From the IMG/VR virus record IMGVR_UViG_2935656913_000002: a stretch of 64,000 nucleotides of DNA. One strand, written 5' to 3'. A model generated the notes under the pieces. That model was not told the origin of the DNA. It did no database searches and was given only the letters and a program-made list of their open reading frames with translations. Origin of the DNA: a virus. Made by a program: the position numbers and the translations under genes. This document shows positions 1,641-41,552 of the stretch, piece after piece. The first letter of the stretch is position 1, and every line of letters starts with the position of its first letter.

Positions 1641-1931
1641 TCATGTCAGTGCGCCGCCCGGCCGCATGGCGGTCTTGATATCCTTGATCAGGTCGGCGCC
1701 GGTCTTGGAAGCATTATGCTCCCATTCCGGGTTCTGCCGGACGGACAAGCACGCTGCCGGAAGAGTACCCTTCCCATCCCAGCCGTTTGCGGACCAATAG
1801 TACCTGATGATCTCTGTCCGTTGCTTCGTGGCGGGGTCGTCAACGAAAAGGACCTCCTGAACGACCAAGGGCGGACTTCCGGAGTTGAGATACACGATGT
1901 CGCCGGGCTTGCGGTTTGACGGGCTGAGCAT
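1641..1931 (-). CDS. DUF2158/YodC-like small protein
   Basis: KPGDIVYLNSGSPPLVV matches the GDxVxLKSGGPxMTV pattern. Confidence 0.5.
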   Translation of the reverse strand: MLSPSNRKPGDIVYLNSGSPPLVVQEVLFVDDPATKQRTEIIRYYWSANGWDGKGTLPAACLSVRQNPEWEHNASKTGADLIKDIKTAMRPGGALT

Positions 1932-1953
1932 TTCTATTTTCCTTTGACGTGAG

Positions 1954-1993
1954 AAAACCCCCACGGCGGAAATCGGGGAAACCGCCGTGGGGG
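1954..1993 (-). terminator. Intrinsic terminator
   Basis: 12-bp stem CCCCCACGGCGG/CCGCCGTGGGGG followed by TTTTCTC on the minus strand. Confidence 0.6.
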
Positions 1994-2040
1994 CCTGTTA
2001 GGGGCGAGGCGTAGTTGGCCCTCCGTCTCGCCCCGATCTG

Positions 2041-2241
2041 TTACCAAGCCGCCGTTTGCGACTGGGAAGCGGACGAGCCGGACGCCTCATCGAATTCCGG
2101 CTTCAGGTGACGCGCGCCGGGATTGCCCGCCAAGGCGGCTTCGACGCTGGCCGTCATTTCGACGCACCGGCCGCCCGTCTCGCCTTCGACTTCGACCTTG
2201 CTGTCACCGAGCTTGTTGATGGTGACCACGATTTTCGGCAT
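2041..2241 (-). CDS. DUF2997-family protein
   Basis: IVVTINKLGDSKVEVEGETGGRCVEMTASVEAALAG pattern; sits next to DUF1257 and an AAA ATPase. Confidence 0.65.
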   Translation of the reverse strand: MPKIVVTINKLGDSKVEVEGETGGRCVEMTASVEAALAGNPGARHLKPEFDEASGSSASQSQTAAW

Positions 2242-2271
2242 TGAGATTACTCCGAGTGGGGGGTTGCGGGA

Positions 2272-2706
2272 TTACGCGTATTCGGCGGTCAGGACGATCT
2301 CGCCGTCCTTGCCCTGCTCGCGGACCACGGCGTGACCGGCAAGCGCCAGTTCGTCCTCGGCCACGCACGTGGAGTAGCGCTGCAACAGCTTGCCGATGGC
2401 AACGCGCTCATCCCGCAGACCGCTGTCCAGCTTGCACGACACGTCGCTGCCGTCGTGCTTCATGCCATACGGATCGTAGTACGGCAGGTAACTGCCATCC
2501 GGCTGCTTGACCAAGCCGATGTCGTGGCGCTGGTCGGCCAGCACAATGGCGAAGTCGCACTTGTTCGGCTGGCCAGCGTAGGTGCGGAAGGTGGCCTGTT
2601 CCGCGAAGGCGACGTTGACGCCCTCGGCCTTGAGTTCGTTGATCGCCCGCTTGATCGCGTCGAGGCTGGTGATCTTGACGTTTTTTATCAAAACATTATG
2701 ACTCAT
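2272..2706 (-). CDS. DUF1257 (Ycf35-like) protein
   Basis: Starts MSHNVLIKNVKITSLDAIKRAINEL; context of AAA ATPase and DUF2997. Confidence 0.65.
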   Translation of the reverse strand: MSHNVLIKNVKITSLDAIKRAINELKAEGVNVAFAEQATFRTYAGQPNKCDFAIVLADQRHDIGLVKQPDGSYLPYYDPYGMKHDGSDVSCKLDSGLRDERVAIGKLLQRYSTCVAEDELALAGHAVVREQGKDGEIVLTAEYA

Positions 2707-3209
2707 TTTCGGTATCTCCGCTTGTTGCGTGCTTGAGTGAGCGCCGATGCCCAAACACAATTCTTGAGAAAGTAACCCAACCGATTTTCGACGCGCTCGA
2801 TAGAGTAAGAGCTTAGCGGCTTTTTGCCCATGTCCGCTAGGAAGTTTTCAAATACTAGCCAACGCTCGCAAACCCTAATGCCGCGACCGCCATAGTCTTC
2901 GTAATGCGGATGCTCCGGATTGGTGCATCGTTGGATCATGTTAGCCCACGAATTATATTCTCCGCTGGGCTGACCGCCGACATAGTGACCGTGCGTCCTA
3001 GTCGCCACAAGTTTGTAGCAACCGCACGACACCGCCTTACCAGCGACTAGCGCACTGGAACGTACGACGTTGGTCTTCCCACAATCGCAGTGGACGTTCC
3101 AGTATGCCGCCCGGCCTTTCAGTATGCCCGCGTAAGACGTGGCAATCAACATGCCAAAACGTGCGCCCGTAAGGTCTCGGACCCTAGCAGGAAGCACGTT
3201 GTGGCTCAT
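2703..3209 (-). mobile_element. Free-standing HNH homing endonuclease
   Basis: DLTGARFG, CDCG, SCGC, W..M.QRC, YGGRGIRVCERW, SIERVENRLGY..NCVW motifs; lower GC than its flanks. Confidence 0.85.
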
Positions 3210-3220
3210 GACCGTTGCTC

Positions 3221-3874
3221 CTATTTCTTCGGTCGGATGTTGATAACACGCCGGGCGGGTGTCCTAGTAACCTGAACGACCTTCCCGGTTTCGGTCGTAA
3301 TGGCCTCAGTGGTGGCAATCTGCGCGGGACGGGTCTCGCGTTCGACGATGATTTCCTCGAACCAGTCGCCGTCCTCGTTGTCGTACCAGAACTTGTCGGC
3401 GTAGGGCTCCGGAAACGTGATACCGAGTTTATCGAAATCGGTCGGTGGCACAAGGTCGAAACGTCCCTCAATGAGACCGTTGGGGAACGTGGCAAGGTCG
3501 GCCCCAGTGAAGGGGATACGCAACCTCCGCAGGGCGGCGCTCTCCCGCATGTGCAGGAGGAACATACCGTCCGTCCAAACGATCTCGCCGCCCATCCGCT
3601 TCATGATCTGAAGGACGACGAAAGAACCCTCCGGAACGTTCCAGCGAGACGTTACCCAGACCCCGTGATTGCGGTTCTGTTGTGAAGCCGGATGCTGCTC
3701 GGAGCGGCCAATCTCCGAGACCATGTTCGTGGGTTTCTTCCATGCGAACGGGAACGGCTCCATCGGAGACGCACGGTCGCGCATGAACCACTGCTGCATT
3801 TTGACGGTACCGGAATTCAACGGCGCATTGGCTGCGCTGAAGCTCTCCGATCCCGCGATTAGCCCGATTATCAT
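3221..3874 (-). CDS. Hypothetical protein
   Basis: 217-aa ORF with phage-like codon use and a basic C-terminal tail; start uncertain. Confidence 0.6.
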   Translation of the reverse strand: MIIGLIAGSESFSAANAPLNSGTVKMQQWFMRDRASPMEPFPFAWKKPTNMVSEIGRSEQHPASQQNRNHGVWVTSRWNVPEGSFVVLQIMKRMGGEIVWTDGMFLLHMRESAALRRLRIPFTGADLATFPNGLIEGRFDLVPPTDFDKLGITFPEPYADKFWYDNEDGDWFEEIIVERETRPAQIATTEAITTETGKVVQVTRTPARRVINIRPKK

Positions 3875-3887
3875 AACGTAGCTCCTG

Positions 3888-4262
3888 TTAAGTCGGCACC
3901 CCGTTCTTGATCAAGATCGTGGTTGCCGTGTCGCCGGTTGCATCGACGGTTGTAAGACGAGCTTCCTTGGATGACAAGACGGAATGAGCGAGCCTTATCG
4001 CCCGCTTCACTGCCTCCGACTTGTCGCATTCCCACCGCTCCATGCACTCGTCCAGCATGGCTTGGTGGTTGGCAGGCATACGTACCGTAAGGCTTTTGGT
4101 CTTACTGGGAGCCTCGGACGGTTCGGGTTCTGGTTCTGGTCCCCTGCCCCGCGCAGCGTCGATCAGCTTTTGTCCGACAGGGTTGCCCGAGTGAACCGTT
4201 TCCTTGCGAGCCAAGAGAACCGGGCCAACGGGCCTACGAAGTACGGGGAGTTTCAGAGCCAT
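3888..4262 (-). CDS. Ribbon-helix-helix DNA-binding protein with flexible N-terminal arm
   Basis: SLTVRMPANHQAMLDECMERWECDKSEAVKRAIR fits the RHH pattern; AGGA RBS before MALKLP. Confidence 0.6.
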   Translation of the reverse strand: MALKLPVLRRPVGPVLLARKETVHSGNPVGQKLIDAARGRGPEPEPEPSEAPSKTKSLTVRMPANHQAMLDECMERWECDKSEAVKRAIRLAHSVLSSKEARLTTVDATGDTATTILIKNGVPT

Positions 4263-4300
4263 AGAGGTAGCTTTCCTAGCTGTTGCAGGCGCCTGCAAGA

Positions 4301-6046
4301 TTAAACGTCGAGGTTGCTTCCGCCCTTCTTGGGACCAAGAGACGGCCTACGGATCATACGCCCTCCCGGGGCCGGACGCGATAGACCTTCGCCTGTAACC
4401 TTGGGCTGGCTGACGCCCTCGAAACGCATACCGGAAGACGCGGGCTTGGCATTGTTCTTGGCCCACTCGTGCATGGCGTTCACACGATCCGCGAATGCCT
4501 TGTAGAGCGGTTGCATGTTCTCGGCCTGCGCCGCGATGACAGCACCATTCGGCGCTTTCATCTTGCGGCTGTATGCCTCAAGCAAACCGTCCTTGACGAT
4601 GCTCTCAAGCTCCGCGCCGACGAACTTGTCCGTACAGGATGCAACCTTGGCAATCTCCGTATCCGAAATCTCGTGACCACGCTTCCGGAGATGGATTTTG
4701 ATGATCTCGATACGCTCCTCCTCGGAGGGGAACGTCACCGCAAAGATTTCATCGAGGCGACCCTTACGCATCAGTTCGGGCGGCAAGCCAGTGACGTTGT
4801 TGGCCGTCATGACCACGAACACCGGATAGCGGTCGTTGTTGCGCTCCTGCATCCACGTCAGGAATTGCCCGAACACGCGCTGGCCGATACCGCCGTCCCC
4901 TCCCCCGTTGGACATGCCGCCAAAGCCCTTGTCGATTTCATCGAGCAGCAAGACGCAAGGCGCCAAGCTTTCGATCATCTGAAGGGCTTGCCGCATGCGC
5001 CCCTCGGACTCACCGATGAACTTGCCGAAGACCTTGCCGATGTCGAACTTGACGAGAGGCACAAGCAACGTGCTGGATACCGCCTTGGCGAAAAGCGATT
5101 TGCCCGCGCCGGGAGGACCAACGCAGAGCACACCCTTGGGAACCTCGATGCCGTACTTGCGCGCTTCCTCGCTGTACGCTTTCGCGCGCTTTTCCAGCCA
5201 GCCCTTGAGCAGATCGAGGCCGCCCACGTCACTCATGGGTTGCGGGTCCATGAGTTCGAGCAGATCGGTTTTCTTGATCGCCTCGGTCTTATGCTTGAGG
5301 ATGACCTTGATGTAGTCCTCGGGATGCTGTTCTTTGTCCTCGCGACCGTCCAGCAAGTTCTGCATCTCGACGATGCCGAGAGAAAGCGCGGTCTCGAATT
5401 CAAGCCACGTCATACCGACCGCGTTCTGGATGATGGTCCCGATCTGCGCGTCATCGAAATCGGGCCGCGATCCCGGGTCGATCCCCTCGAATACCTGCTT
5501 GTAGCAGTCCAGCAATTCGGCATGGGACGGCGGCCGGAAGTCCATGACGTGAAGGTCGTCCTCGATCTCAATCGGGATTTTCACCGTGTCCGGAACGATG
5601 AGCACAAGACGCTGATCGAACTCGCGCGCCTTGAGGACGAAGTCCTTGATGTACTGGTGAATGAGCGGCTTCTCGAAATGGTGATGCGGATGCACCATGA
5701 CGTAGATACCATCGTGCGCTTCCTTGCAGATGCTATCGAACGCCTTACCGATATCGATGGTCCCCTCGACGGTCCCGGTGGGCTTGGTCACGTCCACAAG
5801 AGACGCATCCTGAAAGGATGATGGACGCGGGTAGTTCTGCCAGCCCTTGTTGCAAACCCAGACGCGATAGTAGCAATCGTCCTTGGTGAGGGAAATGTCT
5901 TGGACGGCGGACGTGCAGCGGCCAACCTCACGCGTCCGGATAATGAAGACGCCGATAGCGGCATCTGAGTTCCTGCGGAATTCCTCTTGGAATAAATCCA
6001 CGTTCCGCGCTTCACGGGAAGCGCTGGTAGTCATTAGAACGCTCAT
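4301..6046 (-). CDS. Ycf46-like AAA+ ATPase
   Basis: Walker A GPPGAGKS, Walker B LLLDEID, SRH MTANN..LPPELMRKGRLDEIF; degenerate N-terminal AAA-like domain. Confidence 0.9.
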   Translation of the reverse strand: MSVLMTTSASREARNVDLFQEEFRRNSDAAIGVFIIRTREVGRCTSAVQDISLTKDDCYYRVWVCNKGWQNYPRPSSFQDASLVDVTKPTGTVEGTIDIGKAFDSICKEAHDGIYVMVHPHHHFEKPLIHQYIKDFVLKAREFDQRLVLIVPDTVKIPIEIEDDLHVMDFRPPSHAELLDCYKQVFEGIDPGSRPDFDDAQIGTIIQNAVGMTWLEFETALSLGIVEMQNLLDGREDKEQHPEDYIKVILKHKTEAIKKTDLLELMDPQPMSDVGGLDLLKGWLEKRAKAYSEEARKYGIEVPKGVLCVGPPGAGKSLFAKAVSSTLLVPLVKFDIGKVFGKFIGESEGRMRQALQMIESLAPCVLLLDEIDKGFGGMSNGGGDGGIGQRVFGQFLTWMQERNNDRYPVFVVMTANNVTGLPPELMRKGRLDEIFAVTFPSEEERIEIIKIHLRKRGHEISDTEIAKVASCTDKFVGAELESIVKDGLLEAYSRKMKAPNGAVIAAQAENMQPLYKAFADRVNAMHEWAKNNAKPASSGMRFEGVSQPKVTGEGLSRPAPGGRMIRRPSLGPKKGGSNLDV

Positions 6047-40158: not shown

Positions 40159-40644
40159 TCAGCGACTGTCGCGACGATTATGGCGCTGCTGAACACGATT
40201 GGCCCAACGACAATTATCGGGCTCATAATTCCCGTCAACGTCTGGGTAGCGATCAAGAGTAGTTCCGGCTGGTCGTTCCCCCATGTCGGTCAGAAAGTCA
40301 TTAAATGAGTTTAGCCACCGCTCGCAAACACGTATGCCGCGCGCACCATAATACTTATAGTTATCTGCGTCGGGATTGGTGCATCGCTTTTTCATACTCT
40401 GCCATGACAGATACGTTCGTGACGGAGATCGTTGCTTGTTGTGGCCATGGGTAACTTCTCGCGCCAAACAACCACACGACTTTATGTTCCCGGTCTTTAG
40501 ATGCGCCGCGCGCACGTCGATCAGTTTGCGACAAGCGCACCGACACATAAGTCTTGTATGGGTACCCGCATCTGGAATGACATGCAGTACCGTCAAGCGC
40601 CCGAACATCGAACCGGGTGAGTAAGTCGCACGCGGCCTCGCCAT
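40159..40644 (-). mobile_element. Second HNH homing-type endonuclease
   Basis: FGRLTV, CRCAC, SCGC, WQSMKKRC, YGARGIRVCERW, TLDR....GNYEPDNCRW; lower GC. Confidence 0.85.
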
Positions 40645-40648
40645 GGCG

Positions 40649-41023
40649 TCACTTCCGGTTACGCAGCGGGTTGGAGCCCATACGAAAAGCCCATAACGGG
40701 CAGACAACGTCCGAACACATGCGAGCACCTTTGGCGCCGCCCGCACAAAGAACGCAGAATGCGCGAATGCCCGTGGCCTTGCTGCGGATGCGGTTGCGGT
40801 AGGACTGCTCCATGTTGTCGCCTTTGTTCTGGGCGTTCCGCAACATGAGCACAAGATCGTCGGTTGGTACCGATGTGGGGTCCGCGCCAGCGTGAGCAAG
40901 ATAGCTGCACACTCGCAAGCCCGGCTTGTCGATCCCAGTAAGCACCGCGTCCGGACTTGGGATGTAGACCTTGGGCGTTTCAGTTGCAGGTGCCTGCAAT
41001 TCGCCGCGCTTCTTAATCGGCAT
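40649..41023 (-). CDS. Cys4 (putative zinc-binding) protein, paralog B
   Basis: IRAFCVLCAGG...RMCSDVVCPLWAFRMGSNP. Confidence 0.65.
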   Translation of the reverse strand: MPIKKRGELQAPATETPKVYIPSPDAVLTGIDKPGLRVCSYLAHAGADPTSVPTDDLVLMLRNAQNKGDNMEQSYRNRIRSKATGIRAFCVLCAGGAKGARMCSDVVCPLWAFRMGSNPLRNRK

Positions 41024-41552
41024 CGCTCGCTCCTTCTTCCGCCGCGTCCTCTTCCACAAGCGCGTCGTCGGCATCGAGTTCGAACTCGACACTCTCTACC
41101 GGTGCGAGCACCTTGCCAAAGAACGGGTTCGCGCCGAGGCGGAACGGCCACAAGGGGCAAGCAATAGCCTCACATGCGCGGACCTCAGAAGTCTGGCCAC
41201 CCATACAGTAGATGCAGAAGGCCCGAATGGCCGTTCCTTGGTTCTTAATACGCTTACGCGCTGTCTTGGTGACGTGATCACTAACCGCACTGTCATGGAT
41301 CAGTTCCTTCAGGGCTTTGACCGGTATCTCCTTCGGGTTCTTACCCTGATAGAGCAGCCTAAATTCGAGCGGCGCGATCCGCTCCTCAAGATCGAGGATG
41401 CGTTCGAAGTCTTTCTTGTTGTTGGCGTCGTCAAGTTCGACCAACAAGCCATAGTAGCCGCTCTCCGCGCGACGGAATTGCTTAAGGTCTTCCGCGCCGA
41501 AGCCATCGGACTTGAGTTGTTCGTCCGAGCGTATTTGTTTTTTCGTGAGCAT
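41013..41552 (-). CDS. Cys4 (putative zinc-binding) protein, paralog A
   Basis: IRAFCIYCMGG...RACEAIACPLWPFRLGANP. Confidence 0.65.
   Translation of the reverse strand: MLTKKQIRSDEQLKSDGFGAEDLKQFRRAESGYYGLLVELDDANNKKDFERILDLEERIAPLEFRLLYQGKNPKEIPVKALKELIHDSAVSDHVTKTARKRIKNQGTAIRAFCIYCMGGQTSEVRACEAIACPLWPFRLGANPFFGKVLAPVESVEFELDADDALVEEDAAEEGASDAD

Follow-up and report, generated by a model that had tools for sequence, protein, structure and literature searches.

A probable intron-less homing cassette at the start of a phage DUF1257 gene

Why should two overlapping genes of one virus begin with the same six residues, MSHNVL, written in different codons? The question is raised by a 64,000-nucleotide (nt) stretch of viral DNA (IMG/VR record IMGVR_UViG_2935656913_000002; the window, hereafter, means this whole stretch), in which an HNH-like open reading frame (ORF) of 168 amino acids lies directly upstream of a gene of the DUF1257 family. 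Coordinates are those of the whole stretch, and every gene discussed at the locus lies on the minus strand. The HNH-like ORF opens ATG AGC CAC AAC GTG CTT, 8 nt behind an AGGAG ribosome-binding site that overlaps the TAG stop of a 217-amino-acid gene. The DUF1257 gene opens ATG AGT CAT AAT GTT TTG ATA AAA AAC GTC; a GGAG stands 9 nt before its ATG, inside the 3' end of the HNH-like ORF, and the ATG (2704-2706) shares bases with the TGA stop of that ORF (2703-2705) as ATGA. A preliminary description of the locus, made from the letters alone, had given this arrangement with correct coordinates and wording, and had proposed that an endonuclease gene entered the DUF1257 gene, took its start and supplied a recoded copy. 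We consider it probable that the element is a free-standing, intron-less cassette of the homing-endonuclease type, whose specialised target is the start of the phage DUF1257 gene.

Filled and empty alleles and the two copies of the start

When public soil-metagenome contigs were aligned to window positions 2000-4000, a 151-nt contig from run X4, which belongs to another soil study, was found to join 2682 to 3196, omitting 513 nt and carrying 10 other letters between its flanks. Those flanks, 81 and 60 nt long with 2 mismatches each, are about 97% identical to the window, and on the coding strand the empty allele reads ATG AGC CAC AAC GT-A CTC ATC AAG-AAC GTC. The net insertion is 503 nt (513 nt here versus 10 nt in the empty allele), and its left junction falls after nt 14 of the coding sequence. 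The filled allele recurs, with 100% identity over both junctions, in runs X2 and X3 from other studies. Close relatives therefore carry or lack the element at one exact site, the polymorphism by which a free-standing homing gene is recognised. The site lies in highly conserved sequence: the junction falls within the invariant S2-H3-N4 codon region, and ATG-NNN-CAC-AAC-RT is common to contigs L003-L012. We rejected the possibility that the empty allele is a deletion derivative of the filled one, since its codons 5-8 (GTA CTC ATC AAG) match neither copy of the start and resemble those of L003.

More distant relatives tell the same story. On contigs L003, L004 and L005, whose DUF1257 genes are 89%, 72% and about 63-64% identical to that of the window, a homologue of the 217-amino-acid gene is followed by DUF1257 after a gap of 10-13 nt, with no HNH-like gene between. 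The L003 start reads gaagaaataggagc..GTG AGC CAC AAC GTT CTC ATC AAA AAC GTC AAG ATC AC, and the ribosome-site stretch gaagaaataggagc precedes both the HNH-like ORF in the window and the DUF1257 gene in HNH-free L003. The preliminary description had predicted that HNH-free relatives would run from a GC-rich start straight into the body of DUF1257, and both L003 and the X4 contig read so. Its claim that the native ribosome-binding site and start had been captured is likewise borne out, in frame, by the shared context in L003 and by the identity of X4 up to 3196. It placed the insertion after about codon 6; the early codons are indeed where the insertion lies, and the exact point is after nt 14, in codon 5. 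Other searches added nothing close: a single-protein search of viral contigs with DUF1257 gave no matches, protein and alignment searches of genome contigs gave nothing beyond one irrelevant Microbacterium match, and blastn against phage GenBank brought up no close relative, just AAA-ATPase and HNH-family fragments with 65-78% identity.

The features of the target and the cassette are as follows.

3218-3222, minus strand: AGGAG ribosome-binding site, native to DUF1257 and now used by the HNH-like ORF (sequence)
3196-3209, minus strand: native start taken over by the HNH-like ORF, ATGAGCCACAACGT (M S H N V); identity to the X4 empty allele runs to 3196
2703-3209, minus strand: HNH-like ORF, 168 amino acids (PHROG 374, invariant columns of family alignment A2, and a structural match to PacI)
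about 3012-3176, minus strand: CapR-like zinc-ribbon domain of the HNH-like ORF (sub-threshold Pfam CapR match)
about 2706-2993, minus strand: PacI-like domain of the HNH-like ORF (PacI matches at Z 6.2 and 6.1)
3153-3205, minus strand: predicted mRNA hairpin with arms at 3153-3164 and 3194-3205 (minimum free energy and inverted repeat I1)
2716-2719, minus strand: cassette-borne GGAG ribosome-binding site for DUF1257, within the last codons of the HNH-like ORF (sequence)
2683-2706, minus strand: replacement start of DUF1257, codons 1-8 (comparisons with X4 and L003; outlying base composition)
2683-3195, no strand given: segment missing from the HNH-free allele (X4 joint 2682/3196)
2272-2706, minus strand: DUF1257-family gene, 144 amino acids, the intact insertion target (full-length relatives; sub-threshold Pfam match)

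To which gene does the shared peptide belong? In an alignment of 28 DUF1257 relatives S2, H3 and N4 never vary and M1 and V5 hardly ever, while among HNH-family proteins an MSHN start occurs in 2 of the 352 retrieved, the window protein and its sister P0029; the usual N-terminus of that family is M plus 3-7 variable residues, then DLxGxRFGRL. The MSHN peptide is therefore, on this sequence evidence, DUF1257's own start joined to the HNH-like ORF, and the same invariance and rarity rule out a chance origin of the shared MSHNVL. The upstream copy (copy 1, 3192-3209) adjoins the native ribosome-site region; its peptide likeness to DUF1257 extends to 3192, it matches L003 at 15 of 18 nt, and 2 of its 18 nt, both beside the junction, are changed relative to the X4 empty allele. 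The downstream copy (copy 2, 2683-2706) is preceded by HNH coding sequence, and 8 of its 24 nt depart from that empty allele, whereas the flanks depart by about 3%. Such a short tract of donor-type sequence beside the element, codons 1-8, is what co-conversion is expected to leave, and a duplicated gene end flanking a nuclease ORF, one copy native and one diverged, is the arrangement seen in mORF and WHO elements. As an aside, the invariance of the MSHN N-terminus across DUF1257 suggests a functional N-terminal residue.

The two copies encode identical peptides despite their nucleotide differences: over 18 nt they differ at 6 positions, all synonymous, with T in copy 2 at 5 of the 6. G or C occupies the third position (GC3) of 5 of the 6 codons 2-7 in copy 1 and of 1 of 6 in copy 2, and GC3 then returns to 0.88 in the rest of the DUF1257 gene, as the preliminary description had noted. 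The start in copy 2 has the lowest GC3 among the 44 probable genes of the window, and its comparable codons are changed relative to L003 in 5 of 6 cases, where the remainder of the gene shows 38% (P about 0.03). The HNH-like ORF itself has a GC3 of 0.60, DUF1257 one of 0.85, and the genome mean is 0.725 (standard deviation 0.068). From the divergence of copy 2 and the low GC3 of both copy 2 and the HNH body we conclude, as far as composition can tell, that a foreign, lower-GC donor was the source of the cassette, copy 2 included, and that what had been called a recoding would be the donor's version of the same conserved codons. The earlier idea of a recoded copy thus holds for the synonymous differences; for purposeful recoding it seems not to, as the donor's codons are the preferred explanation and the two copies in the sister element on contig L006 are identical over 15 nt. 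The proposal that a synonymous replacement 5' end restores the gene stands, for the DUF1257 ORF is intact and the cassette supplies its ribosome-binding site and start: the cassette ends in the GGAG, the new ATG over the nuclease stop and the replacement codons, giving a full-length DUF1257 ORF with MSHN kept.

The HNH-like protein and its sister elements

The HNH-like protein matches PHROG 374, "HNH endonuclease", at E 7.5e-55, and also PHROGs 3377, 2081 and 953, which bear the same annotation. Its N-terminal half is a zinc ribbon whose CxC...CxC cysteines are invariant, and it reaches the Pfam CapR model below threshold (E 0.0064, 17.1 bits versus 24.2); zinc fingers of the CapR type serve phage homing-endonuclease genes as modules for DNA binding (Barth et al. 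2023, PMC10448857). The C-terminal domain, modelled alone with a predicted local distance difference test score (pLDDT) of 89.7, finds its best structural match in PacI, an atypical HNH enzyme (PDB 3m7k / 3ldy), at Z 6.2 and 6.1 in two comparisons (for Z 6.1: root-mean-square deviation 3.2, 81 of 97 residues aligned, 15% sequence identity), scores that lie within the range unrelated folds can attain. Ten chains only reached a Z of at least 2, Gme HNH and I-PpoI among them, and colicins are among the weaker HNH-enzyme matches. The predicted model comprises a strand at 136-139, a second strand at 151-154 and a helix at 156-163, and its Foldseek E-values for the fold are not significant; for either model Foldseek against the PDB returned nothing significant, the list for the C-terminal domain being dominated by the HNH domains of colicin, pyocin, Cas9 and Cas8, and a profile search of PDB sequences gave no match. 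Atlas neighbours of the domain carry NUMOD1, NUMOD3, I-HmuI-NUMOD-like and AP2 modules, and the window protein keeps all 26 invariant columns of family alignment A2. On these models we regard the protein as probably of the homing-endonuclease type, a putative nuclease with a probable atypical His-Me finger.

The family runs to at least 125,873 representative clusters (E up to 0.001), a very large number. Many of its members (P0148-P0292), whose length reaches about 900 amino acids, place 3-11 tandem CapR-like zinc-ribbon repeats before the conserved C-terminal domain, and that domain, spread over more than 125,000 representative clusters, is without a Pfam model. A second HNH-like paralogue of the window itself (40159-40644, minus strand; 43% identical, GC3 0.53) has its own ATG and stands free between a 147-amino-acid gene and a portal-like gene, with no flanking duplication. 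Next to it, at 40649-41552 on the minus strand, tandem genes of 179 and 147 amino acids overlap by 80 nt and share a C-terminal Cys-rich motif, ..IRAFC..C.GG...C....CPLW.FR.G.NP, with 36% identity over 80 residues; the 147-amino-acid gene directly precedes the paralogue and may be a gene duplicate that arrived together with that element.

The best match of the window protein, P0029 at 57% identity, is encoded on contig L006, which belongs to a distant phage, directly upstream of a DUF1257 gene, itself followed by DUF2997; the two DUF1257 proteins are 54-56% identical. P0029 begins MSHNV, six variable residues and DLIG, a spacing equal to that in the window. In a profile search the window protein and P0029 scored 382 and 356 bits and the next of 6746 proteins 237, and from this gap together with the shared MSHNV we infer that the two form a separate lineage and that the MSHNV fusion is older than their split. 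The L006 HNH ORF overlaps the DUF1257 start by 26 nt, with a GGAG 7 nt before the second ATG, and its two start copies (ATGTCTCACAACGTT) are those identical over 15 nt. Because of that identity, divergence between the start copies appears not to be a required feature, which argues against recoding as what protects the filled allele; interrupting a site that spans the junction would presumably suffice.

How widespread is the layout? Among 155 HNH-family loci of viral and metagenome collections, searched for a peptide that recurs on either side of the HNH ORF, only the window, L006 and L088 rose above a mismatched-pair control. L088 is a mirror image, in which the last 16 codons of an upstream 261-amino-acid gene are repeated just after the HNH stop (1357-1407 and 2447-2497): the gene ends ...DKESYYRHIKLTSSGV, and the second copy reads DKESFYRHIKLTSSGV plus a stop; 13 of the 16 codons are altered and a single residue differs. 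By its sequence it looks like a 3'-end replacement of the mORF/WHO type. The HNH-like family uses gene-end replacement at either end, rarely, and most of its members sit between genes. A metagenome scan with a two-HNH alignment yielded 80 family loci and no additional MSHN-type element, and an exhaustive search of representatives found only multi-repeat family members and no further sister.

Expression, mechanism and rival explanations

Lacking a ribosome site and start of its own, the HNH-like ORF is translated from the AGGAG and ATG of its target, as an in-frame fusion to the first five codons of DUF1257. An internal start was sought and rejected: in L006 no start codon other than the captured ATG precedes the conserved DLxGxRFG motif, and the sole internal candidate in the window, a GTG at codon 5, lies inside the captured segment, 20 nt from the ribosome site. 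A predicted hairpin begins 4 nt after the captured ATG, in which codons 2-5 pair with the RFG codons (minimum free energy -37 kcal/mol, z -3.47); L006 has a comparable one (L006:480-541, z -3.39), and the start of HNH-free L003 has none (z -0.41). Translation of the T4 homing endonucleases is limited by RNA structures, according to a review of T4-like homing (PMC2988022), and by analogy the hairpin may hold nuclease levels low. A scan of 1900-4400 for promoters and terminators gave nothing exceeding shuffles; with no such signal standing out in the operon, the HNH-like gene is probably co-transcribed with it. The ribosome site and start of DUF1257 lie inside the cassette, and therefore its imprecise loss would kill DUF1257; the T4 review takes homing-endonuclease genes in which host promoters are embedded to be kept on the same grounds (PMC2988022).

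How, then, could such a cassette have arrived? On the homing-cassette reading that we favour, the CapR-like zinc ribbon would bind, and the PacI-like His-Me finger would cut or nick, an empty allele near codons 5-8, a predicted cut site that coincides with the most conserved DNA of the DUF1257 gene. Double-strand-break repair would then copy the cassette from a filled allele. Recipient sequence would survive up to the break as the GC-rich copy 1, and everything from the nuclease body through the far side of the break would be donor-derived, as the AT-rich copy 2, with conversion running at least ten nt rightward. The copies would appear recoded since the same codons come from two diverged phages. 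DUF1257 translation would afterwards rely on signals internal to the cassette, and clean loss would for that reason be costly. More tentatively, as a possibility that we hold to be rather unlikely, the lineage may have gone permanently without translation signals of its own, made only as a fusion to the first five codons of its target and under a hairpin built partly of captured codons, while holding the target's ribosome site and start in its own 3' end; it would thereby be translationally locked to an essential-looking host gene, and the divergence of the copies would further block recombinational excision.

Several results weigh against the homing-cassette reading. The closely related empty allele is known from a single 151-nt Logan contig of depth 2, only two members of the lineage are known, and an exact search of viral contigs for the AT-rich DUF1257 start returned no match and no donor lineage. 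The preliminary description spoke of an HNH endonuclease; the PHROG annotation agrees, and a canonical HNH is not what the protein has. Pfam HNH models gave no match at E up to 1 in any of 26 family members, the window protein included, nor did NCBIfam HNH models, and the catalytic His expected of a His-Me finger at the end of the first strand is replaced by Arg139, which is invariant at this general-base position in A2 (26 sequences) and in alignment A5. His73, Tyr146, Asn150, Gln159 and Asn162 are invariant too and are candidate substitutes for the His. To these must be added the modest specificity of the PacI score and the identical L006 copies, which leave a local duplication as a possible origin of the first insertion.

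Might the element then have been disarmed or domesticated, no longer cutting, perhaps serving as a DNA binder or regulator and persisting since the ribosome site and start of DUF1257 lie within it? The Arg at the general-base position and the missing Pfam match would fit, as would the 168-amino-acid form, which is without the C-terminal helix-turn-helix/NUMOD tail of longer A2 homologues, and T4 homing-endonuclease genes with embedded host signals offer a precedent for retention on such grounds (PMC2988022). The Arg, however, is invariant across the 26 A2 sequences of a family of at least 125,873 clusters and so is a family trait rather than decay; all 26 invariant columns are retained; and a filled/empty polymorphism at about 97% flank identity, together with foreign composition, indicates recent movement. 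We regard loss of activity as unlikely. A transposable element with a target-site duplication was also considered and rejected: the insertion is a single HNH-like ORF with no transposase, and there are no inverted repeats at 2683 or 3195.

The duplicated start could instead have arisen locally, if a staggered cut or a template switch on insertion doubled the first 14-15 nt much like a target site and copy 2 was then recoded in place under selection against repeat recombination or self-cleavage. L006, with two identical 15-nt copies flanking its HNH gene, is what such an event would leave, and the first insertion of the lineage must have generated a duplication of this kind somehow. In the window, on the other hand, 8 of the 24 nt of copy 2 are changed from the empty allele beside flanks that differ by about 3%, and eight synonymous fixations in that time are unlikely; at 7 of the 8 differences copy 2 has A or T, fitting a lower-GC donor like the HNH body; and terminal inverted repeats and a transposase are both wanting. 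We give a local origin little credence. Nor do we put more than slight weight on the cassette being an old vertical passenger, present in the ancestor of the window phage and L006, precisely deleted from all HNH-free relatives and no longer moving. Direct repeats could mediate excision, and the divergence of the HNH proteins (57% identity) is similar to that of DUF1257 (54-56%) between the filled alleles; yet the three nearest DUF1257 relatives (89%, 72% and about 63-64%) and the approximately 97%-identical X4 allele all are without the cassette, which would need many independent losses, recombination of copies 1 and 2 does not give the X4 allele, and the GC3 of the HNH-like ORF has not drifted to the genome value. 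Both of these histories seem to us very improbable.

Known systems and neighbouring genes

The published parallels come from fungal mitochondria and from yeast. Fungal mobile-ORF (mORF) hybrids pair an endonuclease ORF with a foreign C-terminal gene end, while the displaced native end stays close to its relatives, and the ORF is sometimes in phase with the host gene (PMC3630166); examples are atp6 of Allomyces macrogynus and atp6, atp9, cox2 and nad3 of Glomus (PMC3630166). As in those hybrids, an endonuclease ORF here sits near one end of a conserved gene and brings a foreign copy of the displaced end, diverged in DNA and not in protein (PMC3630166). The differences are equally plain. The mORFs replace the 3' end and are read through from the host body, whereas the 5' end, and only 14-24 nt of it, is replaced here, and the displaced native start is the nuclease's own initiation signal; their nucleases are LAGLIDADG or GIY-YIG rather than CapR plus a PacI-like domain; and their hosts are organelles rather than a phage. 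WHO elements at yeast FBA1 (Coughlan et al. 2020, PMC7282813) likewise home to a conserved gene whose end they replace whenever they integrate, with no splicing, but the end is the 3' one, the nuclease is derived from an intein, the genome is a eukaryotic nuclear one, and repeated homing builds clusters where we see a single cassette. The cassette works like mORF and WHO elements, yet stands outside their families, with other domain classes and the 5' end replaced.

Within phages, the free-standing seg and mob genes of T4-like phages share the placement of a nuclease gene in a host operon, the use of upstream host signals and the overlapping of neighbours, and also embedded signals for the downstream host gene that favour retention and RNA hairpins that limit translation; they differ in sitting between genes or splitting genes into two polypeptides. 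In the searched passages of the T4-like homing review from which this is taken there is no duplicated gene end and no in-frame capture of a target's start codon (PMC2988022). The T5orf172 homing genes of the CapR type share an N-terminal zinc module with CxC...CxC, often in tandem in members of the family (PMC10448857), but the partner nuclease domain here is not T5orf172, and the CapR match is the sub-threshold one. The comparison with PacI is at the level of fold, with a middling Z. Both proteins are without the usual His, PacI probably uses a Tyr, and the Tyr invariant in the HNH-like family is Tyr146; PacI differs in being a restriction enzyme with two zinc sites within the domain.

A literature search turned up no phage description of this layout, which is not proof of absence. 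The locus shows cleanly, in a phage, a device already described in fungal mitochondria and yeast, and what is new is the in-frame capture of the target's start. The displaced start serves as the invader's initiation signal rather than surviving as a dead mini-ORF, this feature is conserved in two diverged copies of the element, and a near-identical empty allele is on record. A selfish nuclease could in this way enter coding sequence without intron or intein, by carrying along a spare copy of the short gene end it displaces; in phages such replacement extends to the 5' end, with the displaced start reused to express the invader. The case is tractable, with filled and empty alleles about 97% identical in soil metagenomes, a conserved target of 30-40 nt and a small protein, and data on activity would bear on much of phage annotation, since the family is very large, unstudied, labelled "HNH" and without the canonical His.

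The remaining genes at the locus are these.

about 4301-6046, minus strand: AAA+ ATPase gene (ORF list)
3888-4298, minus strand: 136-amino-acid gene (ORF list)
3221-3874, minus strand: 217-amino-acid gene, the upstream neighbour (ORF list; synteny with L003, L004 and L005; DNA alignment to L003)
2041-2241, minus strand: DUF2997 gene, the downstream operon partner (Pfam DUF2997, E 1e-08)

The 144-amino-acid DUF1257 protein matches the Pfam model at E 0.0034, below threshold, and is 89%, 72% and 63% identical over its full length to P0001, P0002 and P0003. DUF2997 keeps the same position in the gene order of L004, L005 and L006. The order AAA+ ATPase, a gene of about 112 amino acids, one of about 217, DUF1257 and DUF2997 is common to phage contigs at 63-72% DUF1257 identity (window 2041-6046; L004:1186-4671; L005:1191-4679).

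For annotation, short peptide repeats between the starts of adjacent genes are a signature of such insertions. Other repeated starts occur in the window: candidate ORF starts at many sites, for example on the minus strand near 4298, 41000 and 48280, share the hexapeptides MQAPAT, MQVPAR and MQVPAT, and these MQ-type peptides fit the genome-wide 16-bp palindrome seen in the preliminary description. Two genes of the window with SGNH modules also share N-terminal tags (MMVSQEN, MGTNGN).

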